This document shows, in pieces, positions 1,238 to 35,920 of a DNA stretch of 64,000 nt. Under the pieces are notes generated by a model, which was given only the letters and a program-made list of their open reading frames with translations, was not told the origin of the DNA and did no database searches. A program made the position numbers and the translations under genes. The first letter of the stretch is position 1. Each line of letters begins with the position of its first letter. This DNA is from Candidatus Iainarchaeum sp. (lineage in GTDB: Archaea; Iainarchaeota; Iainarchaeia; Iainarchaeales; JACQJH01), in contig JACQJH010000002.1 of assembly GCA_016205145.1 (NCBI GenBank), positions 489,696 through 553,695 on the forward strand, given 5' to 3'.

Positions 1238-1445
1238 ATGTAGCCGTCACGCCCGGCTAGTGCGAACTAAGGCTTATCATGGCAAAATCGCGATTTTGCC
1301 ATGTGCCCGGAATCTTGGGATTCCGGTGCATGCCGCTGCAATAAGCCGAGTAAGCTTTTTGCAAATAAGTGGCGTTGCAACAGCAACGCCACGCAAGGGG
1401 CGTGCGAGGGGCGAAAGCCCCTGCCTGCGCGCTGTTGCGCGTGAC
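1238..1445 (-). repeat. interspersed structured repeat family, copy (inverted orientation)
   Basis: Contains CCGGCTAGTGCGAACTAAGGC (compare copy 35745-35920 in reverse), GAGTAAGC, and the hairpins GGCGTTGCAACAGCAACGCC and GGGGCGTGCGAGGGGCGAAAGCCCC. Confidence 0.6.
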
Positions 1446-1488
1446 AAACCAAACAATAGATGAGACTCGCGAAGGAAGTAGCAAGATT

Positions 1489-2046
1489 TTATTTTTCAAC
1501 TACAAGCTTTCTTGACATAAGCAGTTCCGCGATCTTCTGCGGCAGTGGAATGACTTCGCCCTTCGAAAACGGCCCGTATTCCTTCATGTCGGTTCCGACA
1601 AAAGCAGGCACGTCCTTCAGCACGGAAAACAGTTCGCCGGAAGACGCCTCGGCAATGGAAAAGCTTTGGGTTTCACCGTCAAACAGTTCGGCAAGCGACT
1701 TCCTGTGCTCCGCCATCAGTTTGAGCAGTTCAATGAACGTCGCCTTTTCTTCGGAGGACACTTTCTGCAGGGCAACATCCCCGGTCCTTGACGCCACAAG
1801 CGCGCGGTTCAGGAGCTTTTTTTCGCGCAAGGCAAAGATTTCCTGCACCATTTTCTTGAGGTTCGAAAAATTCCTCGCCTTTGAAGTGGAAATGTCGCGC
1901 AAAGACTTCAGGTATTCCTCTTTTTCGGCTTTCATGAAGGCGTTGAGCTTTTCGAAGAAATCGTCGTCAACTTCGACAAGCTTGGAAGTGTTCTTTTCAA
2001 GCCTGTAAATGCGCCTAAGCTCGTCGTATGAAACGTTCAAAGCCAA
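1489..2046 (-). CDS. GINS complex subunit (Gins15/Gins51)
   Basis: 185 aa. The N-terminal YDELRRIYRLEK...DDFFEKL A-domain signature is typical of archaeal Gins51, and it lies immediately upstream of priS, the conserved archaeal arrangement. Confidence 0.7.
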   Translation of the reverse strand: MALNVSYDELRRIYRLEKNTSKLVEVDDDFFEKLNAFMKAEKEEYLKSLRDISTSKARNFSNLKKMVQEIFALREKKLLNRALVASRTGDVALQKVSSEEKATFIELLKLMAEHRKSLAELFDGETQSFSIAEASSGELFSVLKDVPAFVGTDMKEYGPFSKGEVIPLPQKIAELLMSRKLVVEK

Positions 2047-2094
2047 CCCCGAACAAAGAATGCTACAAAAACTGTTTAATAGATATTGCAGGGC

Positions 2095-3306
2095 CTAAAC
2101 AGGCTTTGCCCTGCCCGAAGCGACCAAAAATATCGCAGCGGACAGCGGAAGTTCCGTTTCAGCCTTGCGCATTTCCGCAAACTTTTCCCCTTTCAGGGAA
2201 AATTCCGGCGAAAAATCCACGAAAACCTTGGCGGGCTCGCGCCCGAAAACAACCGCGTCGGAGAAAGGGTCAAACTGTTTCAGCGCATCCAATGAAACTC
2301 TTTTCGCCTGGAAGCCCGTGCCGCCATGCAAAGTGTCGGGAACGCGCAGGATCTTGCTCTTGTCAAGCGAAGTCTGCCTGTCGACATTGAATGATTCGCA
2401 CAAAACCGTGAAATCGAAAATCTTTGGCCAGAAATCCTTTGTGTTCCTGCCCGAAGGCGAAACGAGGATGCCTTGCGAAAGCTTTTCAAGAAAATTGTCC
2501 CTTCCAGCCAAAAGTTCTTCGGCTTTTTTCTTGCTTATCCCGCCGATTGCCGCGACCTTTTCCGCGTTGCCCGCGCTGAAAAGGCTTTCAATGCCGGACA
2601 GGATTTTTTTCTGCCAGCCGAGGGCAATCTTCTTTTGCGGGCAATGGAATGCCTTGCCGATGCGCACAAATCCAAGTGCAGTGAGGTTGACGGAATGGCC
2701 AGTTAGATAGTCGAGCAGTTCTATGCGCCCGGCATGCGGCAAAGCGTTGATTTCCTCGCCGCGCAAATGCACGTGGTATCCGGCATTGCCCGAGAAGTTC
2801 ACGTCAAAGCCTGAAAACCCGAAGTCTTCCTCAAGCGCTTTGACAAGGCGAAAAACCTGGCTTTTGGTTTCGCCAAGGCATTCGTTGCAGAACATCTGCT
2901 TTACAGAGACAGGCGAACCGCAGGACGTGCAGTTCTCCACTTTTCCCGGGCCGCTGGAAAAACATTTCGGGCACAGCCAATAGTCATGGCGCTGCTTGCA
3001 GTCTGTCTGAATGTCGTCGGCGTCGAATTCATAGACGAGGTCGGCTGAAATGAAGCCTTTTGCTTCAATCGGCCTCGCCGCCGGCATTTTGTATTTTGCG
3101 CCCGAATAGGATACGAACAGCGGCACTTCTGAGCGGAGGAAAGCGTTGAATGCGTCATGGCTTGGAAATGCAAGGTGCCTCTGCGAAATCTTCAGGCCGA
3201 AAATGCCGCAGCCGAACTCCCTTTTCTCCGGTTCGGGCGGCTGGGAAACGAAATTTTTTTCGTAAAACTGCCTGAAATGCTGTTTCAGGAAATCCTCGGC
3301 ACGCAT
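2095..3306 (-). CDS. priS: DNA primase small (catalytic) subunit PriS
   Basis: 403 aa. Catalytic acidic motif (YEFDADD), a zinc-knuckle CPKC...CTSCG and the archaeo-eukaryotic primase fold signature; followed by priL. Confidence 0.85.
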   Translation of the reverse strand: MRAEDFLKQHFRQFYEKNFVSQPPEPEKREFGCGIFGLKISQRHLAFPSHDAFNAFLRSEVPLFVSYSGAKYKMPAARPIEAKGFISADLVYEFDADDIQTDCKQRHDYWLCPKCFSSGPGKVENCTSCGSPVSVKQMFCNECLGETKSQVFRLVKALEEDFGFSGFDVNFSGNAGYHVHLRGEEINALPHAGRIELLDYLTGHSVNLTALGFVRIGKAFHCPQKKIALGWQKKILSGIESLFSAGNAEKVAAIGGISKKKAEELLAGRDNFLEKLSQGILVSPSGRNTKDFWPKIFDFTVLCESFNVDRQTSLDKSKILRVPDTLHGGTGFQAKRVSLDALKQFDPFSDAVVFGREPAKVFVDFSPEFSLKGEKFAEMRKAETELPLSAAIFLVASGRAKPV

Positions 3307-3337
3307 GCAAGCATTCTTTGCCTAAAAGTAATAAAAA

Positions 3338-3425
3338 AGGTGCCGGGCACCCAACACAAAGCAGATGGGTATTGCAATGGCAATACCCGTCGTCGAACCA
3401 GCCGGACGAAACCGGCTTCAGCCGC
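3338..3425 (+). repeat. interspersed structured repeat family, short copy
   Basis: AAAGCAGATGG, hairpin GGGTATTGCAATGGCAATACCC, then CGTCGTCGAACCAGCCGGACGAAACCGGCTT. Preceded by the palindrome GGTGCCGGGCACC. Confidence 0.6.
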
Positions 3426-3642
3426 GCTTTGAGCCTATTATGGACGCAGATGAAAGTATTGCCGCCGACAGCACAACAAAGTTCGCTTCGGGCGAGAAAC
3501 CCAGGAGCTTTGCCGCAATCGAGATTATCGCAAGGTTTATGCCGAATGAAACCAGTCCGACGACCAGAAGCACGAACGCAGTCAAAACCACAAACGCAAG
3601 AGTTCCGACGCCAAGAGAAGCCCAGAAGCCCATCAAAACCAC
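3418..3642 (-). CDS. small hypothetical membrane protein (2 TM helices)
   Basis: 74-aa ORF that is hydrophobic throughout; the opposite-strand ORFs look like translation noise. Confidence 0.35.
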   Translation of the reverse strand: MVLMGFWASLGVGTLAFVVLTAFVLLVVGLVSFGINLAIISIAAKLLGFSPEANFVVLSAAILSSASIIGSKRG

Positions 3643-3690
3643 CCCAAAAAAAGCCGAAGCTTTCAGGAAGAATGAAAAGCGGAAAAATTT

Positions 3691-4857
3691 TTAAACGCTG
3701 TTTTCCGTGCTTTTTGGAAGCGGGGTTGCCGCAGTGCCATCATTGGCTGCTTTTTCCACGCCATTGGCGTTGCCCGTGCCATCCGTGCCGGCCGGGGCTG
3801 GCGGGGCGTTTTTTTTGCCGGAATCCTTTTTCAGTTCGCGCTGGTAAAACGAGACGGGATGGGAAACATTGCAGTCTTTTCCTTTCGGGCAAAAGCCGTA
3901 TTCCCTGACTTTTTTGCACGCCGGCGCGGACATCTGCTTTCCTACAATCCTCTTGACCTGGTATGCGGTCATCTTGCGGCTGAAATTCGGGGTTTTCGAG
4001 TAAAGCTCGACTATGTCCTCTTCGGGCATGCCGATTGACGACAAGAAGGCGGCAATGAAAAACCTGCCCATGTGCGGAACGTTTTTCCCTTCCAGCAAAT
4101 CAGAGTAAAGCGATGCCATGCAGTCCGGAAAAAGGTTGGGGTCGATTTTGCCCGACAGCTTGAGCTCGAAATCGCGTTCGCGCAAAGAGTTGAGGTGCGA
4201 GGAAACCTGCGACGCAATGCGCTTGAACGCGTTCGGCACTGCCGGCTGTTGGCCGGAAACGGATTCGAAAACGTTCCAGTAAACCTTTTCCGCCAGGAAA
4301 TGGCAGAACCCATTCTCGTCGAAAAAAACCCTGCCATCGGAAACCTTCTGGTTGACAAGCTTGAGGCTTTCGTCCCTGAAGCCTATGGACAGAAAATCCG
4401 GCAATGCAACTGAAACGAAAAAATCGGGGGAATCGGAAAGCGATGCGCTTATGCCAAGTTCGCCTGCAAGCTCCTGCGATGCCTTGCCGCGGTCCGGCTC
4501 ATCCTGCAAATTCTTAAACGTGTTTTTTGCGGTCCACGAGGCGAACTTCTTGTCCGCCTGCCCGTTTTTCATCTGCCCGAGAATGATTTTGGCGGCCGGA
4601 AAAGCCATTATTTCGCGTTCAAGGATTTCCTCCGATGAAACGTGTTCCAGGGGCTGCTGCTTGTCCTTCCACGCGCTCACGATCATGAAGACCGCGCGCT
4701 CTATTACGGGCCTGTTCTCGGCGGTTTCGTCAAGCGAAACATTGCTGTCCTTCAGTATGCGCATTGCGGCTGAGGAAAAAGGGTATTTCTGCGCGAACAA
4801 AAGATCCTGCGAAACCGGCATACAGGGAAGAATGCCTGAAAAACAATAAATAACCAT
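3691..4857 (-). CDS. priL: DNA primase large subunit PriL
   Basis: 388 aa. The C-terminal cysteine cluster (PACKKVREYGFCPKGKDC) fits an Fe-S domain, and it is adjacent to priS. The start is uncertain, and an unusual low-complexity Ala/Gly/Thr/Asn-rich tail follows. Confidence 0.75.
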   Translation of the reverse strand: MVIYCFSGILPCMPVSQDLLFAQKYPFSSAAMRILKDSNVSLDETAENRPVIERAVFMIVSAWKDKQQPLEHVSSEEILEREIMAFPAAKIILGQMKNGQADKKFASWTAKNTFKNLQDEPDRGKASQELAGELGISASLSDSPDFFVSVALPDFLSIGFRDESLKLVNQKVSDGRVFFDENGFCHFLAEKVYWNVFESVSGQQPAVPNAFKRIASQVSSHLNSLRERDFELKLSGKIDPNLFPDCMASLYSDLLEGKNVPHMGRFFIAAFLSSIGMPEEDIVELYSKTPNFSRKMTAYQVKRIVGKQMSAPACKKVREYGFCPKGKDCNVSHPVSFYQRELKKDSGKKNAPPAPAGTDGTGNANGVEKAANDGTAATPLPKSTENSV

Positions 4858-4924
4858 CCCGGACGCTAAAAGCTTAAAAGCCGGCAGACGAAAATGCTTA
4901 TGGCCGAAAGGCGAAAACCTGAAC

Positions 4925-9786: not shown

Positions 9787-10554
9787 TTAATAGCTGTATT
9801 TTTTGCTTGGAAATTTCCCGCTTTTTACCTGATTGCCGAATTTTTCCGCTGCGCCGGAAATCTTTCCCCCGAGGTTGTCGAACCGCTTCACGAATTTCGG
9901 CTGGAAATCCGGCAGCAGGCCGAGAATGTCGTGCAGCACCAAAACCTGTCCATCACAGTGCCTTCCCGCGCCGATGCCGATTGTCGGAATGGCAAGGCAG
10001 TTAGTGATTTTTTTTGCGAGGCCGGACGGAACGCATTCCAGAACAAGCGCGAAACAGCCTTCCCTTTCAAGGCAGAGCGCGTCCTGCATAATTTTTTCCG
10101 CTTCTTCGGCATTCCTGCCTTTCACGGAAAAGTTTTCCGCTGTCTGCGGAGTCAGGCCGAGATGGCCGATGACCGGAATGCCGGCATCGCGGATGGCTTT
10201 TGCTATGCCATCGGAAAAGCCTTCAATTTTCACGCAATGGCAGCCTGCTTCCGAGAATTTTTTCGCGTTCTCGCCTGCAAGGTTTGAGTTCGTGAAAGAG
10301 CCGAACGGCATGTCCCCGATCACAAAGGATTTTTTGCACGCCCTTGCGACAGCCGCGGAATGCCGGAGCATTGTTTCCATTGAAACCGTCGAGGTTTTCG
10401 GCTCGCCGTAAACCACGTTGTTCAGGGAATCTCCGACAAGCAGGGCGTCAACCTTCGCGTCGACAAGCCGTGCAAAGGCATGGTCGTAGCAGGCAAGCAC
10501 GGAGATTTTTTCGCCGGACTTCTTCATTTCGGCAAACTTTTCGGAAATGTGCAT
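9787..10554 (-). CDS. panB: 3-methyl-2-oxobutanoate hydroxymethyltransferase
   Basis: PanB signatures (GDMPFGS, GIGAG..CDGQVLV). The likely start is the Met at MHISEKF, 16 codons inside the listed ORF, which avoids overlapping PCNA paralog 2. Confidence 0.8.
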   Translation of the reverse strand: MHISEKFAEMKKSGEKISVLACYDHAFARLVDAKVDALLVGDSLNNVVYGEPKTSTVSMETMLRHSAAVARACKKSFVIGDMPFGSFTNSNLAGENAKKFSEAGCHCVKIEGFSDGIAKAIRDAGIPVIGHLGLTPQTAENFSVKGRNAEEAEKIMQDALCLEREGCFALVLECVPSGLAKKITNCLAIPTIGIGAGRHCDGQVLVLHDILGLLPDFQPKFVKRFDNLGGKISGAAEKFGNQVKSGKFPSKKYSY

Positions 10555-10598
10555 GAAAAGCTTGTGCTGGAACAATTTGAAAAAGCTATTTGTCCCGC

Positions 10599-11345
10599 TC
10601 ACTCTGATTCTATGCGCGGCGCAAGGAAATAGGTTATGTCGGCCTTGCCGACCTTGTAGTTGACCTGGATGGGCGCGTTTGTTTTGAGGAAAACCTTGAC
10701 TTCGGTGTCAGAGGAAGCGGTTTTGAGCATGTCGGAAAGGTAGTCCAACGGGAACATGCTTTTAGCCTCGTCTTTCACTTTCATTTCGGTTATCGCCTTG
10801 TCGTCCTTCTGGGTTTCGCTGTTCAGTTCGCCCTTGCTTGAATGCGCCCTGACAAAAAACTTTTTGTTCTCGATGCCCAACGAAACGTGCGTTGAAATGA
10901 GCGCGGAATCCTTGAGCGCGTCCTGCAGGACCGAAGCCTTCATTGAAAGTTCCGCGTCGAAGTCTATGCGCGGACTCGGCAATTCGGAAGCGGAAATGTC
11001 TATCAAAGGCATGGAAAATTTTCTCACGGAAGAGCCCTTGAACGTGACGCTCAGATAGTTCTTGTCGTCCTCCAATGCCAGGTGCAGTTCGTCGCCGGCC
11101 TTCGACCTGGACATTATCTGGCCCAGGTAATCGAGGTCCAGGCCGAGCTTGGTTTTGCCGTCCAAATCGAATTTTTTGAAGGAATCCTTTTTGAGCGAGA
11201 AGTCGACCATTGAAATCTGGCTTGGGTCGGTCGCCCTCAATGACAAACCATTGGCGTCGAAGATGAATTCGGCCTCGTCGATCAGGACCGCGATTGAGTC
11301 GATGCATTTCTTGAAATCGTCGGCCTTTTCGAGCACTACGTCCAT
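10599..11345 (-). CDS. pcn: DNA polymerase sliding clamp PCNA (paralog 2)
   Basis: 248 aa. PCNA motifs (LRATDPSQISMVDF, VRKFSMPLIDISASE); only about 30% identical to paralog 1. Confidence 0.8.
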   Translation of the reverse strand: MDVVLEKADDFKKCIDSIAVLIDEAEFIFDANGLSLRATDPSQISMVDFSLKKDSFKKFDLDGKTKLGLDLDYLGQIMSRSKAGDELHLALEDDKNYLSVTFKGSSVRKFSMPLIDISASELPSPRIDFDAELSMKASVLQDALKDSALISTHVSLGIENKKFFVRAHSSKGELNSETQKDDKAITEMKVKDEAKSMFPLDYLSDMLKTASSDTEVKVFLKTNAPIQVNYKVGKADITYFLAPRIESE

Positions 11346-11399: not shown

Positions 11400-11541
11400 A
11401 TCTACCCCGCAGGCACATGCATACTCGGCGTGCCGCACAGCGGCACGCCTTGGCTCCGAACCAGCCGCAGTTGCGAAGCCAGCGCCATGCAATGCATGGT
11501 GCGCGTACCAGCCGGACGAGACGGCTGCGGACGGAAGCGGC
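11400..11541 (+). repeat. interspersed structured repeat family, copy
   Basis: CATACTCGGCGT, hairpin GGCGTGCCGCACAGCGGCACGCC, ...GAACCAGCCG..., hairpin CCATGCAATGCATGG, ...GTACCAGCCGGACGAGACGGCTGCGG. Confidence 0.6.
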
Positions 11542-12315
11542 TCAGCAAATCAGGTCGTAGTCCGCCGGCAGCCTTCCGGTCGAAGCGAGGCCGAGCAGGT
11601 TGTCGAAAATCCAGAGCTTTGCGCAGCCGAGCACAGGGATCTGGAAGATTGCCTTGCCCTGCACTTGAGAGGCGTTGACCGGATAGAGCGTGATGCATGC
11701 CTGCTGTGAAACGCCGTTCACGATTTTGCCGCAGTCCGCGTCAAGAGTGTAATTCTGCTCGCTGTCGCCTTTTGTCAGGAGAAACGTTCCATCATTTGCA
11801 GCGAGTTTTGCCACGACGCGGTGGATTATCGGCCTGCCTGACGGGACAGCCGTGTAAACGACAATCGACCCGGTCTTTTCAACCGGAATTGTTTTGCCGT
11901 CCTTGAAAACGATTTTTTTCGCCTGCGGAATGCCATTCTCCATTTCAAACCTCAGCGACGCGAAATCGGAAAAAGGCGTGTTCGAAAGGCTTTGGCTTGG
12001 CATGGAAACTTCCGTTGCCTTGATGCCGTCCGGTCCGGCGCCGGCAAGCATTATGATGTCGCCGCGATGGTACAACGGTTTCATGGAGCCGGAAACGACT
12101 ATCATGAAAGGCGATTGCGTCTGCAGGATCATGCCCGCAATAGTGTATGCGAGCCAAGCGAAAACGAATGCGGAAACGATGTAAACTATTGTCGAGATTG
12201 CCGCGTTGTTTTTCGGGTTGACTGCCGGCATGACAAAGAGGTCGACGTAGTGGAACGGATCGAGCCATTTCAGCTTCTGCAGGATTGCATGGAATGGGCT
12301 TTGCTTGGCCGGCAT
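11542..12315 (-). CDS. signal peptidase I (archaeal/Sec11 type, S26 family)
   Basis: 257 aa. An N-terminal TM anchor is followed by the catalytic Ser motif VVSGSMKPLYHRGDII. Confidence 0.8.
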   Translation of the reverse strand: MPAKQSPFHAILQKLKWLDPFHYVDLFVMPAVNPKNNAAISTIVYIVSAFVFAWLAYTIAGMILQTQSPFMIVVSGSMKPLYHRGDIIMLAGAGPDGIKATEVSMPSQSLSNTPFSDFASLRFEMENGIPQAKKIVFKDGKTIPVEKTGSIVVYTAVPSGRPIIHRVVAKLAANDGTFLLTKGDSEQNYTLDADCGKIVNGVSQQACITLYPVNASQVQGKAIFQIPVLGCAKLWIFDNLLGLASTGRLPADYDLIC

Positions 12316-16595: not shown

Positions 16596-16715
16596 AAAAA
16601 AGCAGACGGGTATCGGGCAAGCGGAATCGTCCAACCAATCACGCGCAACAGCGCGCAGCTCCATGCGAATGAAATGAGCATGGGGCGTCGGACCAGCCGG
16701 ACGAAATCGGCTTAA
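16596..16715 (+). repeat. interspersed structured repeat family, copy
   Basis: AAAGCAGACGGGTAT..., hairpin CGCGCAACAGCGCG, hairpin CCATGCGAATGAAATGAGCATGG, GGCGTCGGACCAGCCGGACGAAATCGGCTTAA. It supplies the stop codon of lonB. Confidence 0.6.
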
Positions 16716-18655
16716 TGCGCGGATTTTTGGGAGACCTTTTCAATATTTACGCCGCTAATCGACGGCAGGCTTTTCAGTATTTTTTTGAGCGACAGCAGCA
16801 TTGAATCCTTTTTCCTGGATTTCTCGAAAGCGTTCGCCAGCACGTCGGACAATGTCGAAACGGAAATTATTTTTATTTTGGCGAGTTCGGCTTCAGGCAG
16901 GACTATGTCCTCGCGGTTGGCCTTGGGCACGATGACTTCCTTGAAGCCCGCGCGGATTGCGGCGTGCACTTTTGAAGTAACGCCCCCGACGGGAAGCACT
17001 TCGCCGCGGACGGAGAGGCTGCCTGTCATTGCCAGGCTCTGCTTTACCGGAATGCCTTCAAGCGCTGAAATCACTGCCGTTGCGACGGACACCGAAGCGG
17101 AATCGCCTTCGACCCCTTCATAAGTCTGCAAAAACTGTATGTGCAGGTCGTGCTGGCTTATGTCCTTGCCGGAAATGCGCTTGATTATTGCGGAAACATT
17201 CTGCACGGCTTCGCGCGCAATCTCCCCAAGCTTTCCGGTCGCAATGACCCGGCCCTCGGACTTTGAAGCTGCCGGCGCGATTTCGGCCTCGATCGGCAGC
17301 ACAGTGCCCGCACTCCCGTCACCGGAAACTGCGAGGCCGTTGACCCTGCCGACAACCGCGCCCTCTGAAAGGTAAACTTCGTATTCGCGCTTGCTGTCGA
17401 TTATCTTGTCAACCATCTGCTGTTCCAGCGTTCTTGCGGACATCTTTGCCTCGATGACGTCCTGCGCCTCGACAAGCGAATGGCTTTTCTCCTTTGCAAT
17501 GTCGCCGGCCGCCCTGACAAGGCCGCCCAAATCGCGCAGTTTCAGTGTCAGCCTGACTTTCCTGTCGGCGCGCCTGCGCGCCTCGAAAATTATCAGGTCA
17601 ACGGCTTCCCTTGAAAAGTGCGGAATCTTGCCGTCCTTTTTGATTTCCTGGCAGACGAACTGCACTATCTTTGACCTGTTTTCGGGCGTGTCCGGCATGT
17701 CAATGTTCATGTAAACCTCGTAGCCGTAGCCCCTGATCCTTGAACGCAGGGCGGGATGCACTTTTTCCAAATCACGGTAGTTGCCCGCCGCGACAAGCAC
17801 GAAATCGCACGGCACGGGCTCGGTTCTCGTCATGGCGCCGGAGGACATTTCGCTCTGCCCCGTAATCGCATACTTTTTTTCCTGCATGGCCGTAAGCAGT
17901 TCCTGCTGTGCCTTGTATGAAAGCGTTGCAAGCTCGTCGACAAACAATACTCCGCCCGAAGCCTTGTGAATGAGGCCCGGCTCGACGCGCAGATGCGGGG
18001 GCGTGCCGAGGCCGCCTGACTGTAACGGGTCGTGGCGGACGTCGCCGAGCAGTGAGCCGGCCCTCGCGCCCGTTCCTTCAAAAAACGGCGCAAGCTTTTT
18101 GCCTGCATTGTCAACCAACAGCTTGGGCGTCCTTTTTTCCTCGCGGCTCCTCATCTGGTTGCCGACTGCAAAGCCCACTATCAGGAAGCCGCCCAGAATC
18201 ATCATCGCAGCCACGATCACGTCAGGCGCCCACTTGAAAAAATAGACGACCCAGACAATCAAAAACCAGCCCAGCGGAAACAGCATTGAAACGAGCCTGA
18301 AATTGTCGTCCGCGTGCTGTGCTTCAATCCTTTCCTTGTTCAAAATTTTCTGGCCCTCGCCCGCAGGAACCGGCCTCACCTTGGGATTGTTGGGATCAGT
18401 GTCGTTCGGGTAAATGAGTATGTCGCTCAGCTTCTGCACGGGCAGGACTTCCGACATTGCCAATGCAAGCATGCTCTTGCCTGTTCCGGGCTCGCCCACC
18501 AGAAGAACGTTTCTTTTCTGCGCGGCCGCCTTTCGGATGATGTCAACGCTCGAATCCTGGCCGATGACCTGGTTTATGGTCTTGTCGGAAACCGGGATTT
18601 CGGCTGTGGACCGGAAATTGAGGAAATCGGCCTTGTGCGGGGAAGACTTAGGCAT
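16712..18655 (-). CDS. lonB: archaeal-type Lon protease LonB (membrane-anchored)
   Basis: Walker [13 protein letters not shown], two TM helices inserted in the AAA+ module, and a C-terminal Lon protease domain with catalytic Ser ([16 protein letters not shown]). The start is set at MPKSSPHK; the listed ORF runs 104 codons further upstream into noise. Confidence 0.85.
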
Positions 18656-18664
18656 TAAAAGAGT

Positions 18665-18800
18665 TAGCCAAAAAAACATTAATAAATCAATCGCAGGCCC
18701 GGCGAAAAAACCGGAAAAATACGGCAAAACGCGAAGGCAAAAAAAGCGGAAAAACAGCCGCAAAAAAAAACAGGGCGGATGCGGGTAAAAAAGTCTCAAG
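18665..18800. promoter_or_regulatory. divergent promoter region with helically phased A-tracts (lonB / rnz)
   Basis: ccggcgAAAAAAccggAAAAAtacggcAAAAcgcgaaggcAAAAAAAgcggAAAAAcagccgcAAAAAAAAAcaggg: A-runs recur at about 10-11 bp intervals. Confidence 0.4.
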
Positions 18801-18809
18801 GGTTTTTGA

Positions 18810-19718
18810 ATGAATGCCAAAATAACCGTTCTGGGCACGAGCTGTTCTAATCCCACAAAGGAAAGGAACCTTTCAAGCGTCTGCCTCGAATTTGCAGGCA
18901 AGACGCTTTTGTTCGACTGCCCGGAGGGAACGCAGAGGCAGATGATGCTGGCAGGCGCGTCATACATGTCCGTCGACTATGTTTTCATCAGCCACTTCCA
19001 CGCCGACCACGTGCTCGGCCTTCCCGGAATGCTGGCAACAATGAGCATGCAGGGCAGGGACTGGCCGTTGCACGTCTTCGGGCCGCACGGCATTGAAAGG
19101 CAGATGGAAAAAGTGCTGAGCCTCGGCCTGCTGAAGCAGGGCTTTGAAATAATCTGCCACGAAGCGAAAAACGGCGGGATTCTCGCTGAAAAGGATTTCA
19201 CCATCGAAGCTGTCGGGTTAAGGCATGAAGTGCAGTGCTTCGGCTTCGTTTTCAGGGAAAAAAACAAGAGCGGCGAATTCCAGAGGCAATGGGCGGAAAA
19301 GCTCGGCATACCGGAAGGGCCGTTGTGGAGCAAACTGCAGAAAGGCGAAAACGCCGAGGCGAACGGAAAAACTTTCAGGCCCGAAGACGTGATGGACTAT
19401 TCGAAGGGAAGGAAGGGAAGGAAAATCTCCGTCATCATGGACACTTTGCCGGACGAAAAATATTTCCAGGCGATAATGGATTCCGACCTTTTGATTCACG
19501 AGTCAAGCTTTTTGCAGAAGCATGCGGAAAGGGCGAAGGAAACGAAGCACTCCACTGCAAAGCAGGCCGCGGAAGTCGCAAAAAAAACCAATGCGAAAAA
19601 ACTCCTGCTTTTGCACATCAGCCCGCGCTACCGCGGCGAAAAGGAAATGGAAGAGGAAGCGGAAAAGGTTTTCCCGCACGCGATTGTGGCGAGGGACCTC
19701 ATGCAAATCGAAATCTGA
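18810..19718 (+). CDS. rnz: ribonuclease Z (tRNA 3' endonuclease)
   Basis: 302 aa. Metallo-beta-lactamase motif ISHFHADH and tRNase Z length and architecture. Confidence 0.8.
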
Positions 19719-20504: not shown

Positions 20505-20706
20505 GCAAAAAAAAGCAGATGGTTACTGGGCGAATGCGACGCACCGGAACCCCAAGATTCTGGACACGTCCAAAGCAGATGGGTATTGCATCAGCAATGC
20601 CCCAGAATCCTAAGATTCTGGGCACGTCGCAAAATCCAAGATTTTGCGAAGTACCCGTCGTCGCTCCACGCAGCCGAAACTGCGTCCGGACGGAATCACC
20701 GGCTTG
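20505..20706 (+). repeat. interspersed structured repeat family, long copy with internal triplicated 20-bp motif
   Basis: AAAGCAGATGG, then AAAGCAGATGGGTATTGCATCAGCAATGCCCC, then three copies of C(C/T)AAGATT(C/T)TG(G/C)(G/A)... (ccaagattctggacacgtc, cctaagattctgggcacgtc, tccaagattttgcgaagtac), ...CGTCGTCG..., GCAGCCGAAACTGCG...CCGGCTT. Confidence 0.55.
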
Positions 20707-25394: not shown

Positions 25395-25831
25395 CGAAGG
25401 AACCTGGCAGGCGAGTCAAACACCTTCCGTCAACGCAACTCAATGCAGAACTTGGCAGGACAGCGCAAACATTGCGAGAATTGAGCGAAGACCCGTTCCA
25501 GGGAAACGGGACAATTGTTGCAGAAAACCTGAGAGCGTTGGCCGAACTGTGGGCGGAGTATAATGCAAGGAACCATGTTGTCAGGATAAGAAACCCGGAA
25601 CTTGAAGCAATGGTTATCAACACGGTCGGCGAAGTTCTGGGAACATATCGCAACACCCGTCAACTGATAGCTTTAGAGAACACTTGGGGAATAAGGTTCG
25701 GGACGCATTCCGACATGGCGAGGGCCACAGAGCAGGCGCAAAACCACGGAGCCGCGCCGCGAAAGTCTTGGAGAGAAAGGCTAAAGCGGGTTGCCGGAAA
25801 AATTCTGCCGCACAGGAACCTGGGGAAGTGA
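25361..25831 (+). CDS. hypothetical protein in the pheS-pheT spacer (uncertain)
   Basis: An uninterrupted 186-codon frame fills the 440-bp pheS-pheT gap. The only ATG (about 25361) overlaps the pheS 3' end. The product is hydrophilic with no recognisable motifs; this could instead be an ncRNA locus. Confidence 0.25.
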   Translation: MAAERKDGESLTKEPGRRVKHLPSTQLNAELGRTAQTLRELSEDPFQGNGTIVAENLRALAELWAEYNARNHVVRIRNPELEAMVINTVGEVLGTYRNTRQLIALENTWGIRFGTHSDMARATEQAQNHGAAPRKSWRERLKRVAGKILPHRNLGK

Positions 25832-25836
25832 AAAAA

Positions 25837-28980: not shown

Positions 28981-30171
28981 ATGCTGTCAGGCATTGTCGG
29001 AAAACCGAATTCGGGCAAGAGCACTTTTTTCTGCGCTGCAACAATGGTTGACGCGGAAATCGGCAACAGGCCGTTCGTAACGATAAAGCCGAACCACGGC
29101 GTCGGCTACGTCGTTTCGGAAAATCCCGGAGTCGAAAGCCACAAGGTTCCGCAGCCCGTGAATTACAAATTCGAAAACGGCAAAAGTTATATTCCCGTGA
29201 AACTGCTTGACGTTGCCGGCCTTGTCGAAGGCGCCTGGCAGGGAAAAGGATTGGGCAACCAGTTCCTCAACGACCTGATACAGGCGGATGCCCTCATCCA
29301 CGTCCTTGACGCCTCCGGCTCCACCGACGCGGAAGGCAATGCAGTCGGCGCGGGAAACCACGATCCCGCGAAAGACGTGCTGTTCCTTGAGCGCGAAATG
29401 GATTACTGGATCAAAAGCATCCTGACGAAAAACTGGCAGAAGATTTCCAAGCAGGCGACCGTCACGAAAAAGGCCGCGGAAATCCTCGCATTGCAGCTCA
29501 CGGGTTTGGGCATAACCGAGGATGACATAAAAGAGGTGCTGAAAAAGGAAAATTTTTCCGCAGTGCCGGATGAATGGAACGAGGATGAAATTCTTCGGTT
29601 CAGTTCGAAGATTCGCGAAAAAAGCAAGCCCATGCTTATAGCCGCGAACAAGATGGATTTGCCGGCCGCGCGCGAAAACCTTGACAGGCTCAGGCACGAT
29701 TTTCCCGGCAAAATTTTCGTGGAATGCTGTGCCGAAGCCGAGCTTGCACTGCGGAAGGCGGACAGGGCCGGCGTGATAAAATATCTGCCGGGCGCAAAAG
29801 GCTTTGAAGTGCTCAAGGACCTGCCCGAAAAGCAGGTGAAGGCGCTTGACTTCATCAAGGCGGCTGTTCTCGAAAAGTTCGGTTCGACCGGCGTGCAGGA
29901 CTGCCTGAACAAAGCGGTTTTCGAACTGCTGGACCTGATAGCAGTATATCCCGTGCAGGACCAGAACAAATGGGTTTCAGGCAAGGGAAATTGCCTGCCG
30001 GACGCGTACCTTCTGAAGCGCGGCTCGAAGCCGAAAGACCTTGCGATAAAGATTCACACCGATTTCGGGCCGAAGTACATCGGCGCAATCGACTGCAAAA
30101 CGGGATTGAAGCTGGGAGAGGACGCGGAACTGAAGCACAACGACGTCGTCAAGATACTGCTCAAGAACTAA
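28981..30171 (+). CDS. Obg-like ATPase / YchF-family GTP-binding protein with C-terminal TGS domain
   Basis: Starts MLSGIVGKPNSGKSTFF (G1), G3 motif DVAGLVEGAWQGKGLGNQFL, and a C-terminal TGS-like domain. Divergent from rfcL. Confidence 0.75.
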   Translation: MLSGIVGKPNSGKSTFFCAATMVDAEIGNRPFVTIKPNHGVGYVVSENPGVESHKVPQPVNYKFENGKSYIPVKLLDVAGLVEGAWQGKGLGNQFLNDLIQADALIHVLDASGSTDAEGNAVGAGNHDPAKDVLFLEREMDYWIKSILTKNWQKISKQATVTKKAAEILALQLTGLGITEDDIKEVLKKENFSAVPDEWNEDEILRFSSKIREKSKPMLIAANKMDLPAARENLDRLRHDFPGKIFVECCAEAELALRKADRAGVIKYLPGAKGFEVLKDLPEKQVKALDFIKAAVLEKFGSTGVQDCLNKAVFELLDLIAVYPVQDQNKWVSGKGNCLPDAYLLKRGSKPKDLAIKIHTDFGPKYIGAIDCKTGLKLGEDAELKHNDVVKILLKN

Positions 30172-30277
30172 ACAGGAAAAAAAAGAACTAAAAAAAAGCA
30201 AAAAAAAACAGGAAAAGAAAAAAAAAGAAAATAAGAAAGAAACCGGGAAAGAAAAAACCCGGCAAATGAAAATCTAT
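30172..30277 (-). terminator. oligo-T (A-rich on + strand) tract downstream of the H1-like/coiled-coil gene
   Basis: About 100 bp that is more than 75% A on the + strand, so the minus-strand transcript is poly-U-rich, which is the archaeal intrinsic termination signal. It contains the CCGGG(n10)CCCGG mini-hairpin. Confidence 0.4.
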
Positions 30278-31969: not shown

Positions 31970-32005
31970 TTCACCGCGCAGAGTTAATCTGGGGGAGGCG
32001 TTTTT

Positions 32006-32386
32006 ATGGTTTTGGACAAGCAGGAACTCGCTTTGGAGATAACAAAAATCTACTATTACAATCTCGCATCAAAGGGCGCCAAGGAAAGCATCAACGCCGA
32101 AAACATCCTTGACACTTACAATTACGCATTGCTTTTGCTCAACGAAAAGTTGCAGGAAAGAAAGGAAACTGCAAAAGCCGCAACGGAATTGAAACTGCCG
32201 GCGGCGCCGCAGGTTTCCGAAAGCGGTTTTTCGTACACAAACCAGAAGGGCATAACATATTATCTGCACCAGAAGGGCAGGCTGTTTTACTTCTCAAAGG
32301 ACAGCAGAAGCTCAATCGTTGTCCCGCAGGGCTACCGCATAAAGGAAAACCCGCGCACCGGCCTGCCGTTCATAACGAAAAAGTGA
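32006..32386 (+). CDS. hypothetical protein
   Basis: 126-aa ORF divergent from the H1-like gene, with no recognisable motifs. Confidence 0.45.
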   Translation: MVLDKQELALEITKIYYYNLASKGAKESINAENILDTYNYALLLLNEKLQERKETAKAATELKLPAAPQVSESGFSYTNQKGITYYLHQKGRLFYFSKDSRSSIVVPQGYRIKENPRTGLPFITKK

Positions 32387-32389
32387 GGG

Positions 32390-33244
32390 CTATTCGCCAA
32401 TTGACTTTGTCAGGTCGGGCCTCACAAGCCTTCCGAGCACGTTCAGGCGCCTGAGGCTTTCAAGCAGCTGTTCCCGTGAAATGCCCAGGCGCATGACATG
32501 CGGCTCGGAAAACAGGCCGTCAAGTGTTTCAATGCCTTCCGTGCGGCACGCGCGCAAAACTTTCAAATCCTGCATTGCCTTATGCCGCGCCGGGTCGTTT
32601 GTTTCAAGCGAAAACACTGCATGGCTTTTCGGCTCCGGCCGACCGGAAGCAAACGGGCCTTCCCTGACAAGCAAATCGAATTCCCTTTTGTTCCAGGACG
32701 CGCCATAAGCGCGCGCAATCACAGCCAGTACATTCCGTTCAAATCCAACATTATCCGGATTGGAAATAACTATTTTTGCCCCTTTGCGGTTCAGAAGGCT
32801 GCGCAACAACGACAATGGCAGGCCACCGCCCCAATACAGCGGAAAAGGCTCGAATGAAACGCTCCAGTCAAACCTGTTTTTGGAAAGTGGAATCCTTGAC
32901 GCTTCACGCGTCCTGAACGAACGGATGCGCGTGCCCTCAGGATTCTGCTCCTGCAAAAGCCTTGCACGCCGCACCATGCCGGCGGAAGCGTCCGTGAAAT
33001 GGACTTCCGCCTGTTCCGCCAAAGCCTTTGCCCAATTGCCGGTGTAGCCGGCGAAAAAAAGAATTTTGCTGCCAGGCTCAATGCCGAGATGATGTAAAAG
33101 GCGCGGATCCGCAGGCACTGTTGCCTGGGCCGCTCTCACGCTCGGCACAGACCAAGGATCCGCATCAGCAAAGATTTTCACCTCGTGCGGAACAAGAAAA
33201 CGCCGTCGCCTTGCACGCGGTGGTTCCGAAGCCAAACCAATCAC
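32390..33244 (-). CDS. hypothetical protein, possible Rossmann-fold SAM-dependent methyltransferase-like
   Basis: 284 aa, Arg-rich and relatively GC-rich. Weak motif-I-like segment GSKILFFAGYTGNWAKALAEQAEVHFTDAS; immediately downstream of orc1/cdc6. Confidence 0.4.
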   Translation of the reverse strand: MIGLASEPPRARRRRFLVPHEVKIFADADPWSVPSVRAAQATVPADPRLLHHLGIEPGSKILFFAGYTGNWAKALAEQAEVHFTDASAGMVRRARLLQEQNPEGTRIRSFRTREASRIPLSKNRFDWSVSFEPFPLYWGGGLPLSLLRSLLNRKGAKIVISNPDNVGFERNVLAVIARAYGASWNKREFDLLVREGPFASGRPEPKSHAVFSLETNDPARHKAMQDLKVLRACRTEGIETLDGLFSEPHVMRLGISREQLLESLRRLNVLGRLVRPDLTKSIGE

Positions 33245-34416
33245 GCCTTTTTCTGCGCGCCGGCAACATTCGGGGAATTTCCTGCCGCGTGCAGCTTTTT
33301 CATTTCCTCTGAAAGCAATGCTGAAGAAACCGCGAGTGAAATCTTGCGGGACTTGCCATGCATTCCGCTTTCAACGAGCGGCGCGCTGACAAGGTTCAAA
33401 TGCTCAAGCTTTGAAACAATGTCGCGAAATCTCCTCAATGAAAGCTTTTGCCCGGACTTCTCCGAAAACGCCTTGAAAAGCTCGCCTGACAGCGCATCGT
33501 CATGCGAACAAAGCAATTGCAAAACCAGGAGTTCGGAATCATTCAGCGAGGGAAGGACTTTTTTGAACGGGTGCTCGTCGACAAGCGCGAACGCCTTTTT
33601 CAGGTGCAGAATGGAAACCTTCTGCGAATTCTCCTTTTCAGCTTCCTTGCCCGCGCGCCACAAACATTCAATCGCAATCCTCGCGTCCCCGCCAAGGCGC
33701 GAGGCATGGCCGGCCGCGACGTTTATGACTTCATCGTCAAGGCTTCCCGGCAGGAACGCATACTTGCACCTTTCCGCAAGTATGTCCTTCAGCTGCTTCG
33801 GTGAATAGGGGTTGAAGGCAATGTCCTGCACGTGCAATGAACTTCTCACGCGCTCGTCAAGCCTTGAAACCAGTGCGGGGTCGTTTGAAATCAGTATGAG
33901 GCCGAAGCGCTTGTCGCAAAACTCTATGACGCGCAGGAGGTCATAGAAAACCTTGGCCTCTTCCGGCTCGGCAAGCAGCTGTTCCGCCTCATCCAGCACA
34001 ACTATCGGAGCAAAATCCGCTTTTTTGAGCATTTCAAGGATTTTCGAATACACCTCGTCGGTTGCGATCCCGCGCCTCGGCACAGCCGCCTTCAAAAAGT
34101 TTGCGATTGCCGACAGGATCGAGTGGCGGGAATTGTACTCAAAGCAGTTCAGGTAAAGGCCTTTCGCCCTGTCCGAAAATTCCTCAAGCTCGTTCAAAAC
34201 GAATTTGACGCTCGCGGTCTTTCCCGTTCCGGTTTTCCCGAAAACAAAAACGTGCTGCGGCTTCTTGCCCTCTGAAACCGGTTTCAATGCAAAGACAAGC
34301 GCGTCGATTTCCGCATCCCTGTGCGGCAGGACAGCCGGCACATGCTCAGGGTACAGCACTGCCTCGCTGCGGAAAACCTGAGCTTCCCTGCCCTTTCTCT
34401 CGAAAACATTCGGCAT
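33241..34416 (-). CDS. cdc6: Orc1/Cdc6 replication initiator
   Basis: 391 aa. AAA+ Walker A VFVFGKTGTGKT, Walker B VVLDEAE, and a C-terminal winged-helix domain. Confidence 0.85.
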   Translation of the reverse strand: MPNVFERKGREAQVFRSEAVLYPEHVPAVLPHRDAEIDALVFALKPVSEGKKPQHVFVFGKTGTGKTASVKFVLNELEEFSDRAKGLYLNCFEYNSRHSILSAIANFLKAAVPRRGIATDEVYSKILEMLKKADFAPIVVLDEAEQLLAEPEEAKVFYDLLRVIEFCDKRFGLILISNDPALVSRLDERVRSSLHVQDIAFNPYSPKQLKDILAERCKYAFLPGSLDDEVINVAAGHASRLGGDARIAIECLWRAGKEAEKENSQKVSILHLKKAFALVDEHPFKKVLPSLNDSELLVLQLLCSHDDALSGELFKAFSEKSGQKLSLRRFRDIVSKLEHLNLVSAPLVESGMHGKSRKISLAVSSALLSEEMKKLHAAGNSPNVAGAQKKA

Positions 34417-34449
34417 GCAGAAAAGATATTGCTTAAAACGGATAAAAAT

Positions 34450-34630
34450 GCATCGGGCGGCGGTTTCGTCCGCAGCCGGTTCCGTCCGGCTGGTTCGGAA
34501 CCAAGGCGTATCACTGTTGTGATACGCCGAGTAAGTAACATTAAAGTTTTCGGGGGCGTGCGAGACGCGGAGCTCCCTGGTCGGGATTAAGGCTTATTGC
34601 TGCTACAATAAGCCGGGTAAGCGACAGTAA
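34450..34630 (-). repeat. interspersed structured repeat family, copy or copies (inverted orientation) upstream of orc1/cdc6
   Basis: CAGCCGGTTCCGTCCGGCTGG, GGCGTATCACTGTTGTGATACGCCGAGTAAG, GGGGCGTGCGAGACGCGG, GGCTTATTGCTGCTACAATAAGCCGGGTAAGC. Confidence 0.55.
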
Positions 34631-34730
34631 AAAAAATTTGGAGCTGCAGTAAAAGTACCCGCTGCGCGAGAGCCCGTCTGCCCGCAAAAAAAAAACAAGC
34701 TTTTAATACAACCTGAAACAAGATTATTGG

Positions 34731-34900
34731 CATGAGGTTCGGCGAAGGCATTTTTGACAGGGTTTCGGCTGAAAAAATCATGCTCGGCATCGTTCTGCTT
34801 ATTGCAATAATCGCCTTGCTCGCAATAATCGCGAATTCCGCGAACACCACGGTTTCAAGCGCCTCGCATTCGGTTTCCGCGATTTCCGGCGGCCTCAACA
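34731..34900 (+). CDS. small hydrophobic peptide (56 aa), hypothetical
   Basis: ATG at about 34731; product MRFGEGIFDRVSAEKIMLGIVLLIAIIALLAIIANSANTTVSSASHSVSAISGGLNKLA. It sits between orc1 and nfo, below the ORF-track length cutoff. Confidence 0.25.
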
Positions 34901-34915
34901 AGCTTGCGTGATTGC

Positions 34916-35743
34916 ATGGCAAAACAGGGACTTTTGTTTGGCACGGCGGGAATGCCCCTCTCCTACAAAGGCAGGAGCGAGGGCGCAATGCCTTTCATCA
35001 AAAGCCTCGGCCTGGATGCAATGGAAATAGAGTTCGTGCGCGGCGTTTACATGAAAGAGGCGCAGGCGGAGGCATTGGGAAAGGCGGCGGAGGAAAACGG
35101 CATCACTTTGACGGTGCACGCGCCATATTACATCAACCTGAATTCGGAAAAAAAGCAGACTGTCGGCATGAGCAAAAGCTTCGTCTTTGAAAGCGCGCGC
35201 ATCGGCGCGATAGCCGGCGCAAAATCCATCTGCTTCCACGCAGGCTATTACGTCAAGGCGACGCCGGAGGAAACGTACGCGAACATAAAAAAGGCGGTCT
35301 CGGAAATACTTGACAAAATGAAATCGGAGGGCGTGAAAACCGTTCTCGCGCCGGAAGTCAGCGGAAAGAAAAGCCAGTTCGGGTCGCTCGAAGAAGTCAT
35401 TGCTTTGGGAAAGGAACTGGATGGCGTGCAGCCTTGCATCGATTTCGCGCACCTGCACGCGCGGACCGGCGGCAAAATGACTTCGCTGCAGGAATTCGAA
35501 GCAGTGCTCAGGCAGTTGCCCAAAAAATGGCTCGATTTCCTGCACGTCCACATGTCAGGCATGAATTTCGGCGAAAAAGGCGAAAAAAACCACCTCGTTT
35601 TCGGCGACCCCGGCAACAGGTTCCACTTCGAGCCGGCAATCCAGGCATTCAAAAAGCTCGGAGTGAAAGGCGTTGTGGTCTGCGAATCGCCGAACGTCGA
35701 GGAAGACGCATTGAAAATGAAAAACTGTTATTTACAGAAATAA
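34916..35743 (+). CDS. nfo: apurinic/apyrimidinic endonuclease, endonuclease IV family (xylose-isomerase-like TIM barrel)
   Basis: Begins LLFGTAGMP...; metal-binding motifs HAPYYINLNS and SICFHAGYY; about 275 aa. Confidence 0.65.
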   Translation: MAKQGLLFGTAGMPLSYKGRSEGAMPFIKSLGLDAMEIEFVRGVYMKEAQAEALGKAAEENGITLTVHAPYYINLNSEKKQTVGMSKSFVFESARIGAIAGAKSICFHAGYYVKATPEETYANIKKAVSEILDKMKSEGVKTVLAPEVSGKKSQFGSLEEVIALGKELDGVQPCIDFAHLHARTGGKMTSLQEFEAVLRQLPKKWLDFLHVHMSGMNFGEKGEKNHLVFGDPGNRFHFEPAIQAFKKLGVKGVVVCESPNVEEDALKMKNCYLQK

Positions 35744-35744
35744 T

Positions 35745-35920
35745 CCAGCCAAGCCGGATTTCGCCACCAGTCCGGCCTATGCGAGCAGGGCAGTGCCTTG
35801 CAAACCCCTTGCGTGGTATTGCTTGCGCAATACCACTTATGCACAAACAGCATACTCGGCGTATTGCAACAGCAATACGCCTTAGTTCGTACCAGCCGGA
35901 CGAGACGGCTGCGGGCGAAA
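35745..35920 (+). repeat. interspersed structured repeat family, copy
   Basis: Hairpins GTGGTATTGCTTGCGCAATACCAC and GGCGTATTGCAACAGCAATACGCC flank CATACTCGG, then TTAGTTCGTACCAGCCGGACGAGACGGCTGCGGGCG. Confidence 0.6.

Follow-up and report, generated by a model that had tools for sequence, protein, structure and literature searches.

Mosaic palindromic repeats with a conserved terminal hairpin, probably a non-autonomous REP/MITE-like family, in a Diapherotrites/Iainarchaeota archaeon

Short hairpin-bearing sequences recur between the genes of a 64-kb stretch of contig JACQJH010000002.1, which belongs to a Diapherotrites/Iainarchaeota (DPANN) archaeon with a tiny genome. What are these sequences, and how did they come to lie there? 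The stretch analysed, referred to here as the window, has a GC content of 51% and represents about a tenth of the 637-kb contig, which is perhaps not the whole genome. According to repeat finding and BLAST analyses, eight intergenic loci in the window (c1–c8) have modules in common and occur in both orientations; c8 is a fragment. The preliminary description had reported at least seven loci in both orientations with a series of hairpins. All seven loci and every listed hairpin are present, and the eighth, partial copy was found at 40072–40104. The copies probably form a non-autonomous, selfish family of mosaic palindromic repeats that resembles repetitive extragenic palindromic (REP) sequences, bacterial interspersed mosaic elements (BIMEs) and miniature inverted-repeat transposable elements (MITEs), and that is recognised through one hairpin, M3.

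M3 is the outer and most conserved module. It has the form CGNACCAGCCG-GACGRRA(N)-CGGCT and folds into a hairpin of 5–6 bp with an invariant stem. Its pattern, CGNACCAGCCGGACGRRA(N)CGGCT, always faces outward, and M3 is often followed by M3', a second hairpin with the same loop (GCGG-ACGAAA-CCGC). M3 is present in c1–c7, in a degenerate or interrupted form in c1 and c5. The internal modules M0, M1, M2 and M4 are hairpins with conserved flanks, and an element is a string of such modules.

Comparison with related contigs, numbered here as loci with the prefix L, demonstrates that the copies arise by insertion or recombination. Positions 35796–35923 of c7 and 335–462 of L092 are 98.4% identical over 128 nucleotides (nt), and their flanks are unrelated; the L092 copy is located between a fragment of a class I tRNA-ligase gene and an open reading frame (ORF) with no Pfam match. 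In L136, the gene of an ncsA/ttuA-type tRNA thiolase contains 63 extra nt (21 codons) in frame, which correspond to M4 and M3. This insert is missing in all six aligned homologues, including the orthologue of the window genome itself (P0123, in L147) and P0122 (in L148). At the insertion point the loop has 30 residues; in the solved M. maripaludis enzyme it is much shorter, with 6. Without the insert the site reads GATG(G/A)AACCGGC, and it matches the 3' half of M3 at 10–11 of 12 positions. Thus, the insertion occurred beside an M3-like sequence.

The junction between lonB and the DUF373 gene, which holds c4 in the window, is free of the element in L079 and L080. LonB of the window is encoded at 16712–18967 on the minus strand. 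It is 100% identical to a GenBank protein of a 'Candidatus Diapherotrites archaeon' metagenome-assembled genome, and the next-best LonB proteins are 73–76% identical to it. Those of L079 and L080 show 73–75% identity, the gene order around lonB is largely conserved, and the two genes share 4 bp in L080. Neither the M3 motif nor a hairpin module was found anywhere in these two 20-kb loci, and no element lies at the gene junction corresponding to c3 in either of them. Beside the PCNA gene, L080 has a spacer of 36 nt and L079 one of about 120 nt. In L079, the lonB/DUF373 junction (9800–11021) holds four small ORFs (70–120 aa, no Pfam match), so the junction is a recurrent insertion site.

Elements are also found where contigs break and between tRNA genes. 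L147 is a 1,976-bp short-read Logan contig that carries the ncsA orthologue of the window genome. It breaks inside elements at both ends, starting within inverted M2/M0 and ending within inverted M3 hairpins. Three inverted M3-type hairpins start 1 nt after its tRNA-Val, and the same tRNA in L136 leads into unrelated hairpins. In L149, the entire 563-nt spacer from tRNA-Pro(TGG) to tRNA-Pro(GGG) is built of family modules. One nt separates the first tRNA from an inverted M3 variant, and one nt separates M3 from the second tRNA. The sequence at the 3' end of the first tRNA (GCAGCCCCA) is present in three repeats, with another unit behind each of them.

The hairpins stand out statistically. The 12-mer CCAGCCGGACGA has four exact occurrences and one with a single mismatch in the window. 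With up to two mismatches, 19 matches were detected against 5.9 expected, and none of 100 shuffles reached 19. The window contains 22 perfect hairpins of at least 8 bp; five shuffles, which were approximately dinucleotide-preserving and made with our own script, gave 13–17. Eleven of the 22 are located in the eight gaps that hold elements, which together measure 1,687 bp, or 2.6% of the window. For mini-hairpins of the type stem-NCGRRA-stem, an enrichment test outside the elements revealed no clear excess.

Covariation was analysed in an alignment of 14 hairpin modules from the window and the related loci, together with 500 shuffles and slid controls. In the alignment 94% of the cells are paired, compared with 26–47% in the slid controls, and double-sided changes occur at all nine inner stem pairs; none of the shuffles does as well. 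Since the alignment outdoes all shuffles and slid controls, the variable-but-complementary stems, for which compensatory change had been proposed from the sequence, are confirmed. The stem pairs comprise 381 Watson–Crick, 9 G·T and 7 A·C pairs, and the hairpins (8–11 bp, with loops of 3–6 nt) are nearly perfect palindromes. The stem of M3 itself is sequence-invariant across genomes of 40–54% GC and shows no covariation. The folds of the copies are more stable than those of shuffles (z = −2.3 to −6.2 in the plus orientation), and both strands fold about equally well. RNAalifold applied to seven copies gave only a local hairpin in the consensus and no long-range structure.

The family spreads by insertion, and the hairpin fold may take part in this spread. 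Copies would persist where they are tolerated, namely between the end of a gene and the next promoter, or in frame in a presumably tolerant protein loop. The stems would stay complementary since the spread, or the tolerance, would need the fold. Folding could take place in single-stranded DNA, where a hairpin-specific recombinase would see the structure, as in the systems of REP and the REP-associated tyrosine transposase (RAYT) or of IS200/IS605. Alternatively, it could take place in 3' untranslated RNA. The site that is recognised is probably M3, which does not vary.

The position of the copies relative to genes follows a pattern. At c2, c3, c4 and L092, the outer end of M3 or M3' meets a stop codon (0–1 nt apart, or with bases shared), and in L018, L039, L147 and L149 it meets a tRNA end. 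In L121, it comes about 25 nt, including a further hairpin, after the duplicated 3' end of a tRNA. In the other orientation, M3 or M3' ends 4–11 nt before a TATA-like box at c1, c5, c6, c7, L067 and L087. One copy had been said to supply the lonB stop codon, and this is correct: the terminal T of M3 (16712) complements the last A of the TAA. A comparable arrangement of M3/M3' is seen at the stop codons ending at 3418 and 11542. With respect to the genes, c1, c4 and c7 lie downstream in sense orientation, the orientation of c2 and c3 is antisense, and the genes on either side of c5 and c6 are divergent. In L039 and L149, M3 also abuts the 5' end of a tRNA. There is no room for a promoter before the tRNA, and therefore the element must be transcribed in these two loci. 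In the inverted orientation, c4 and c5 have CCRTCTGC at the end and then 7–8 T in a row; c2 has only TTT at that place, and then a further hairpin and a run of six T.

The spacers in the genomes of the relatives are near zero. Insertions would be tolerated only in the few nt between a stop codon and the next B recognition element/TATA box. Because a compact genome would tolerate insertion only there, the exact abutment would be explained without special targeting. Most genes of the window have no element. The preliminary description had the repeats filling most of the large intergenic gaps; this applies to the first 40 kb only. According to a crude gene call, some twelve other gaps in the window with a length of 90 bp or more are element-free (for example 25395–25683, 43999–44191 and 51079–51236). 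A covariance model of the hairpin module found no copy beyond 36 kb of the window.

The elements occur in two forms. The short form (c2, c4 and c5) consists of AAAGCAGAYGG, one or more hairpins, CGTCG and M3. The long form (c1, c6, c7 and partly c3) has the order M2, M0, M1, M2, M3, M3'. M0 is GGGGC-loop-GCCCC-TCGCACGCCCC, M1 is CTTGCGTGG...CCACTTAT, M2 is CWTACTCGGC-stem-loop-stem-GCCTTAGTTCG, and M4 is GCGARGCCAG followed by a hairpin; the 'AATC' hairpins occur as a pair. The modules that had been described as shared are real but are not found in all copies: AAAGCAGAYGG is confined to the short forms c2, c4 and c5, and the CWTACTCGG...CCTTAG box to c1, c3, c6 and c7. Module content and length are variable, from about 60 to 250 nt. 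In c1, c5 and L121, modules are nested inside the retained closing stem of another hairpin. M4 sits between the duplicated 5' half of M3 in c3, L087 and L121, and this half is duplicated in L018 too. Terminal inverted repeats are observed in three copies; they measure about 35 nt in c7 and 7 nt each in c1 and in unit A of L149. The termini of unit A (CGAACGC and GCGTTCG) are complementary, as are those of c1 (GTCACGC and GCGTGAC), and the differences between the two pairs are compensated.

The long-form copy c1 (1238–1450, minus strand) is located between the genes of GINS51 and eIF2alpha. Along the minus strand it shows the hairpin CGCGC-AACA-GCGCG, M0, M1, M2 with two extra hairpins nested in its stem, and an M3 variant (CGCACTAGCCGGGCGTGACGGCT, 1242–1264), which lies 9 nt ahead of the TATA-like box of the eIF2alpha gene. 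The short-form copy c2 (3358–3417, plus strand) comprises AAAGCAGA (3358–3365), a hairpin (3367–3388), CGTCG and M3 (3394–3417). Its 5' end adjoins the PriS promoter, and its outer M3 end abuts the stop codon (3418–3420) of a 74-aa minus-strand ORF. This hydrophobic ORF (3418–3642), between the PriL gene and c2, probably encodes a membrane protein. Copy c3 (11420–11541, plus strand) has M2 (11420–11458), half of M3 (CGAACCAGCCG), M4 with a hairpin at 11484–11504, M3 (11504–11526) and M3' (11527–11541), which abuts the stop codon of the gene at 11542–12315 on the minus strand. The short-form copy c4 (16599–16712, plus strand) lies between the convergent DUF373 and lonB genes. It has AAAGCAGA at 16599–16606, three hairpins and M3 at 16689–16712, and its last base belongs to the TAA of lonB.

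The short-form copy c5 (20512–20706, plus strand) contains AAAGCAGATGG twice (20512 and 20572) and a pair of AATC-type hairpins (20601–20649) inside a retained closing stem. A hairpin of 16–17 nt, ACGCAG-CCGAAA-CTGCGT, interrupts its M3, the end of which is 8 nt before a TATA-like box. The long-form copy c6 (34455–34700, minus strand) has M2, M0, M2, M3 (34474–34497) and M3' (34458–34473), the last 9 nt before the TATA-like box preceding cdc6. It lies in a 487-bp gap upstream of the cdc6/orc1 gene (33241–34416, minus strand; gene and gap together 33241–34903). The gap contains c6 and A/T runs and is a candidate replication origin. The long-form copy c7 (35745–35927, plus strand) begins 1 nt after the stop codon of an AP-endonuclease gene. 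An inverted M3'/M3-like left end (35745–35785) is followed by M0, M1 (35813–35836), M2 (35851–35890), M3 (35888–35910) and M3' (35911–35925), with a TATA-like box 4 nt further on; the two ends are an inverted repeat of about 35 nt. The fragment c8 (40037–40139, minus strand) is an M0-type hairpin module (40072–40104) between 27-nt direct repeats (40037–40063 and 40113–40139). The repeat is the 3' end, stop codon included, of a CDC48-like gene (40113–42506, minus strand), duplicated at a spacing of 76 nt downstream. A further partial copy of this 3' end, TATCTGACGTA, is found at 40022, and a T-run comes after each copy (40020–40139). The 3' end of the CDC48-like gene looks like a site of repeated insertion or slippage.

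Where else does the family occur? A scan of genome contigs with the M3 pattern gave 78 matches. Three are real (L018, L039 and L067, in contigs of Iainarchaeum or uncultured-archaeon genomes), and 75 are chance matches, mostly in bacterial genomes. Among the 62 matches of a metagenome scan, L087, L092, L120, L121 and L136 are real, and those of L096 and L111, which lie inside a gene, are probably due to chance. In these exact-pattern scans the real matches are all in archaeal contigs, and the chance matches are mostly in GC-rich sequence. The 23-mer CGTACCAGCCGGACGAGACGGCT of M3 is identical at 23 of 23 positions in the window, L018, L039, L092, L121 and L149, which range from 40 to 54% GC. 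In viral contigs the M3 pattern had two matches, both in contigs of 64% GC with no other module; a gapped M2 pattern had 72 matches, none with a hairpin, and the M0 pattern had none. A protein search with the translated element gave no match. A HMMER search of representative sequences with a translated copy yielded one spurious ORF of 205 aa, P0242, which led to L149. Rfam searches of the window and eight related loci, at gathering and permissive thresholds, gave nothing relevant: there was no match at the gathering score, and the best permissive match on the elements was RtT (28 bits against a gathering score of 45), which is at chance level. Literature searches for the motif and for hairpin repeats of DPANN or other archaea found no description. 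The family, which had been proposed as unclassified, is apparently undescribed. The copies are not fragments of a known insertion sequence (IS) or MITE with terminal inverted repeats and no conserved structure; no known IS or MITE was recognised, and the hairpins are conserved.

Several tRNA genes of the related loci contain an insertion or have a duplicated 3' end. In L039 (6976–7147, minus strand), tRNA-Gly(GCC) is followed by a hairpin-rich insert of 78 nt and then by an exact 20-nt duplicate of the tRNA 3' end (TTCGAATCCCGACGGTCGCA). L121 (1284–1518) contains an intron-containing tRNA of 125 nt, which is detected by the Rfam tRNA model (45 bits) and missed by ARAGORN. The 3' terminal 13–14 nt of this tRNA are duplicated about 98 nt downstream, around another hairpin insert. 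The inserts between the duplications of L039 and L121 are hairpins other than the family modules. L018 (83–245, minus strand) has an apparent tRNA with a long insertion, also ARAGORN-negative, whose 3' end is 3 nt from the inverted M3; the insertion is a probable intron of about 90 nt.

Further accounts of the copies have to be weighed. The preliminary description had offered a small non-coding RNA family, REP/MITE-like elements and protein-binding sites. The second of these is favoured by the insertion polymorphism, the near-identical copy in L092, the in-gene insert, the inverted termini and the assembly breaks, whereas non-coding RNA genes found no support. If the loci were genes for trans-acting small structured RNAs, the covarying stems, the folds that beat shuffles, the slight surplus of G·T over A·C in the M3-sense orientation and the transcription of a tRNA leader or spacer in L039 and L149 would be accounted for. 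However, nine G·T against seven A·C pairs give no strand signal, the strands fold about equally, RNAalifold finds local hairpins only, and Rfam has no match at either threshold. Moreover, the orientation to promoters and neighbours is mixed, module content and length vary, and the copies are missing at both junctions that can be compared in relatives, with one lying inside an ORF. Such RNA genes are therefore quite improbable. A host-selected cis-acting signal is the main rival, though still unlikely. Inverted M3 hairpins behind stop codons and tRNA 3' ends would then act as 3'-end, terminator or stabiliser structures, M3 shortly before promoters would be an insulator or protein-binding site, and the repeats would have spread because they are useful, as has been proposed for some REP functions. 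Inverted M3/M3' starts 0–3 nt after the stop codons at c2, c3, c4 and L092, and likewise comes after the tRNAs of L018 and L147, the first tRNA-Pro of L149 and the duplicated tRNA 3' end of L121. The spacing to the TATA-like box at six loci, the T-runs after the inverted short forms c4 and c5, and the invariance of M3 over 40–54% GC point the same way. On the other hand, the same junctions work element-free in relatives, the copy of L136 is inside a coding sequence, most window genes manage with no element, and near-zero spacers make exact abutment expected for any tolerated insertion. A cis-acting signal accounts for the sites of persistence and not for near-identical copies at new loci.

Decayed or miniature integrative elements would explain the duplications. 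A tyrosine or serine integrase acting at the 3' ends of tRNA and protein genes leaves attachment-site (att) duplications on both sides of short remnants rich in hairpins, and exact gene 3'-end duplicates are indeed present: 20 nt of tRNA-Gly in L039, 13–14 nt of the tRNA in L121, 9 nt of tRNA-Pro three times in tandem in L149, and 27 nt of the CDC48-like gene in the window. Nevertheless, c1–c7 have no flanking duplications, the inserts of L039 and L121 are not made of family modules, no integrase is encoded near any copy in the ORFs scanned, and no viral contig carries the modules. This origin appears very unlikely for the family. Hardly any weight can be given to M3 as a binding site of Orc1/Cdc6, similar to an origin recognition box (ORB), with the copies marking a replication-origin region. 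Copy c6 is upstream of cdc6/orc1, several replication genes are in the first 35 kb, and all eight loci fall within the first 40 kb. The ORB core (CCAG..GGA..CGAAAC) is loosely similar to M3, a likeness that is a lead and not a test. However, the match needs two indels, the GC skew of the window is uninformative, and the copies are spread over 40 kb and not clustered at an unwinding element; in other genomes, copies flank tRNAs, follow a TFB-like gene and lie within ncsA. A wider reading, which we put forward only tentatively, combines the selfish repeat with an enzyme and a host use. The family would be an archaeal counterpart of the RAYT system and its REPINs (REP doublets forming hairpins), or a product of transposase-free templated insertion, and M3 would be the site of a class-conserved hairpin-specific recombinase or nuclease. 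Cassettes would enter M3-like sequences (GAYGRAAYCGGC) and the exact 3' ends of tRNA and protein genes with duplication of 8–27 nt, and the host may use the terminal hairpins to bracket transcription units.

Several observations weigh against the selfish repeat family that we prefer. Among the 40 ORFs that were scanned in the window and at four related loci, none has a domain of a transposase, integrase or reverse transcriptase; the lack of such a gene near the copies is, however, in keeping with a non-autonomous family. Weak cross-matches to IstB_IS21 were detected only in clamp-loader-like and CDC48-like proteins and are of the AAA-ATPase type; the scanned ORFs adjoining copies have housekeeping or metabolic domains or no Pfam match. 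No direct repeat of at least 10 nt and no target-site duplication of fixed length flanks c1–c7. Clear inverted termini are present in only three copies and in none of the short forms c2, c4 and c5. The extreme conservation of M3 from genus to genus could be due to a function for the host, and the transcribed element of L039 and L149 could have a role as RNA. Finally, the ncsA/ttuA gene of L136 provides the sole clean comparison of a filled with an empty site.

These features also bear on the mechanism of insertion. Where flanking duplications are present, they vary from 8 to 27 nt (for example 9, 13–14, 20 and 27 nt). Because the duplications vary, the short forms have no terminal inverted repeat and the clean insertion adjoins an M3-like sequence, a classical MITE of the DDE type is disfavoured. 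A hairpin-specific single-strand recombinase, an integrase-like att-based process or template switching at palindromes fits better. The variable duplications in particular suggest integrase-like or template-switch insertion and not a classical DDE transposase.

Other identities were considered and rejected. For a tRNA or split tRNA, ARAGORN found no tRNA in the window, and the adjoining tRNAs of L039, L147 and L149 are complete. For an archaeal intron, the predicted fold of the L136 insertion has no bulge-helix-bulge motif, and the insert keeps the frame open. Likenesses to a K-turn or K-loop, H/ACA and C/D-box RNAs, a hammerhead core and the P4/CR-V elements of RNase P were judged by eye only, and none is found across the copies. 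For an omega-RNA of TnpB/IS200-IS605, no TnpB or TnpA domain is present in the scanned ORFs adjoining copies.

Genes of GINS51, eIF2alpha, PriS, PriL, PCNA, Cdc6/Orc1 and a clamp-loader-like protein are present in the window, as are genes of a topoisomerase, a CDC48-like protein and an aminoacyl-tRNA synthetase. GINS51, PriS, PriL, PCNA and the clamp-loader-like ATPase are all encoded within the first 30 kb. A type II restriction-modification pair (46351–47992) occupies a stretch of low GC content (43%) and was probably acquired horizontally. It consists of an EcoO109I-like endonuclease (46351–47097, minus strand) and an N6/N4 DNA methylase (46958–47992, minus strand). The called ORFs overlap by 140 nt, and therefore one of the two starts is probably miscalled. 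In the region 60301–62334, a gene for an A24-family prepilin/preflagellin peptidase (60301–61503, minus strand) adjoins a 91-nt repeat in three copies (61782–62308, 75–90% identical). On the minus strand this repeat appears to encode short proteins, with N-termini similar to class III signal peptides, that is, pilin-like paralogues. Very A-rich, low-complexity direct repeats of the AAACAGGAAAA type (30160–30275 and 18707–18775) are found between genes and at gene ends; they have no relation to the hairpin family.

DPANN genomes are among the most compact known and are usually called streamlined. The repeats in most larger gaps of the first 40 kb, in assembly breaks and in a coding sequence mean that selfish DNA still spreads in DPANN. 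Where metagenome-assembled genomes of these lineages are fragmented, the breaks are probably at such repeats. Gene callers make spurious ORFs from the repeats (for example P0242), and parts of stop codons and tRNA flanks consist of them. With its 23 invariant nt, kept across very different base compositions, the terminal hairpin M3 offers a way to find the enzyme or host factor by which it is recognised. According to the literature searches, REP-like elements and their recombinases have apparently not been described in Archaea.

How does the family compare with known systems? Bacterial REP, BIME and REPIN sequences, built of short (20–40 nt) imperfect palindromes, are mobilised by RAYT, an HUH (Y1) transposase of the IS200/IS605 type encoded by a single-copy gene flanked by repeats. 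The present family has in common with them short, GC-rich, nearly perfect extragenic palindromes with compensated stems, mosaics in both orientations, locations in 3' untranslated regions near stop codons, a conserved tag beside the hairpin and a non-autonomous nature; the inverted doublet of c7 recalls REPINs. REP palindromes have a conserved GTAG (or CGTC) tetranucleotide head at one end (PMC3733652). Here, in contrast, GTAG is not found beside the hairpins and there is no constant head; CGTC comes after the short-form hairpin (CCCGTCGTCG) and GACG is in the M3 loop, and neither heads every palindrome. Further differences are the archaeal host, the many hairpin modules per element instead of one REP type, and the 64 kb searched with no RAYT-like gene; nor did the literature searches yield any account of a REP/RAYT system in archaea.

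MITEs, such as those of Sulfolobus and haloarchaea or the Correia elements of Neisseria, are similar in being non-coding and intergenic sequences of 60–250 nt, some with inverted termini, whose copy number breaks short-read assemblies and whose presence differs between relatives. Unlike MITEs, the family has no fixed target-site duplication, its short forms have no terminal inverted repeat, its modular and variable interior does not resemble deletion derivatives of one IS, and the window contains no IS. BOX elements of Streptococcus pneumoniae likewise have conserved end modules and a variable number of inner hairpin modules, are intergenic and have no known transposase. They are unrelated in sequence, belong to a bacterial host and have a fixed order, whereas the family modules occur in several orders and nestings. 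The Rickettsia palindromic elements are in-frame palindromic inserts that add a peptide loop, as do the 21 aa in ncsA of L136; here, however, one case is intragenic and most copies are intergenic, and the sequences have no relation. Integrative elements at tRNA genes share the exact duplication of the gene 3' end downstream of the insert and the tandem accretion at one tRNA; the inserts here are of 50–200 nt with no integrase, and most copies of the window have no duplications. Mosaic palindromic repeats are well known in bacteria, and MITEs are known in some archaea. The present family, which has neither the GTAG head of REP nor the fixed duplication of MITEs, is set apart by its host phylum and by its modular build with one invariant terminal hairpin.

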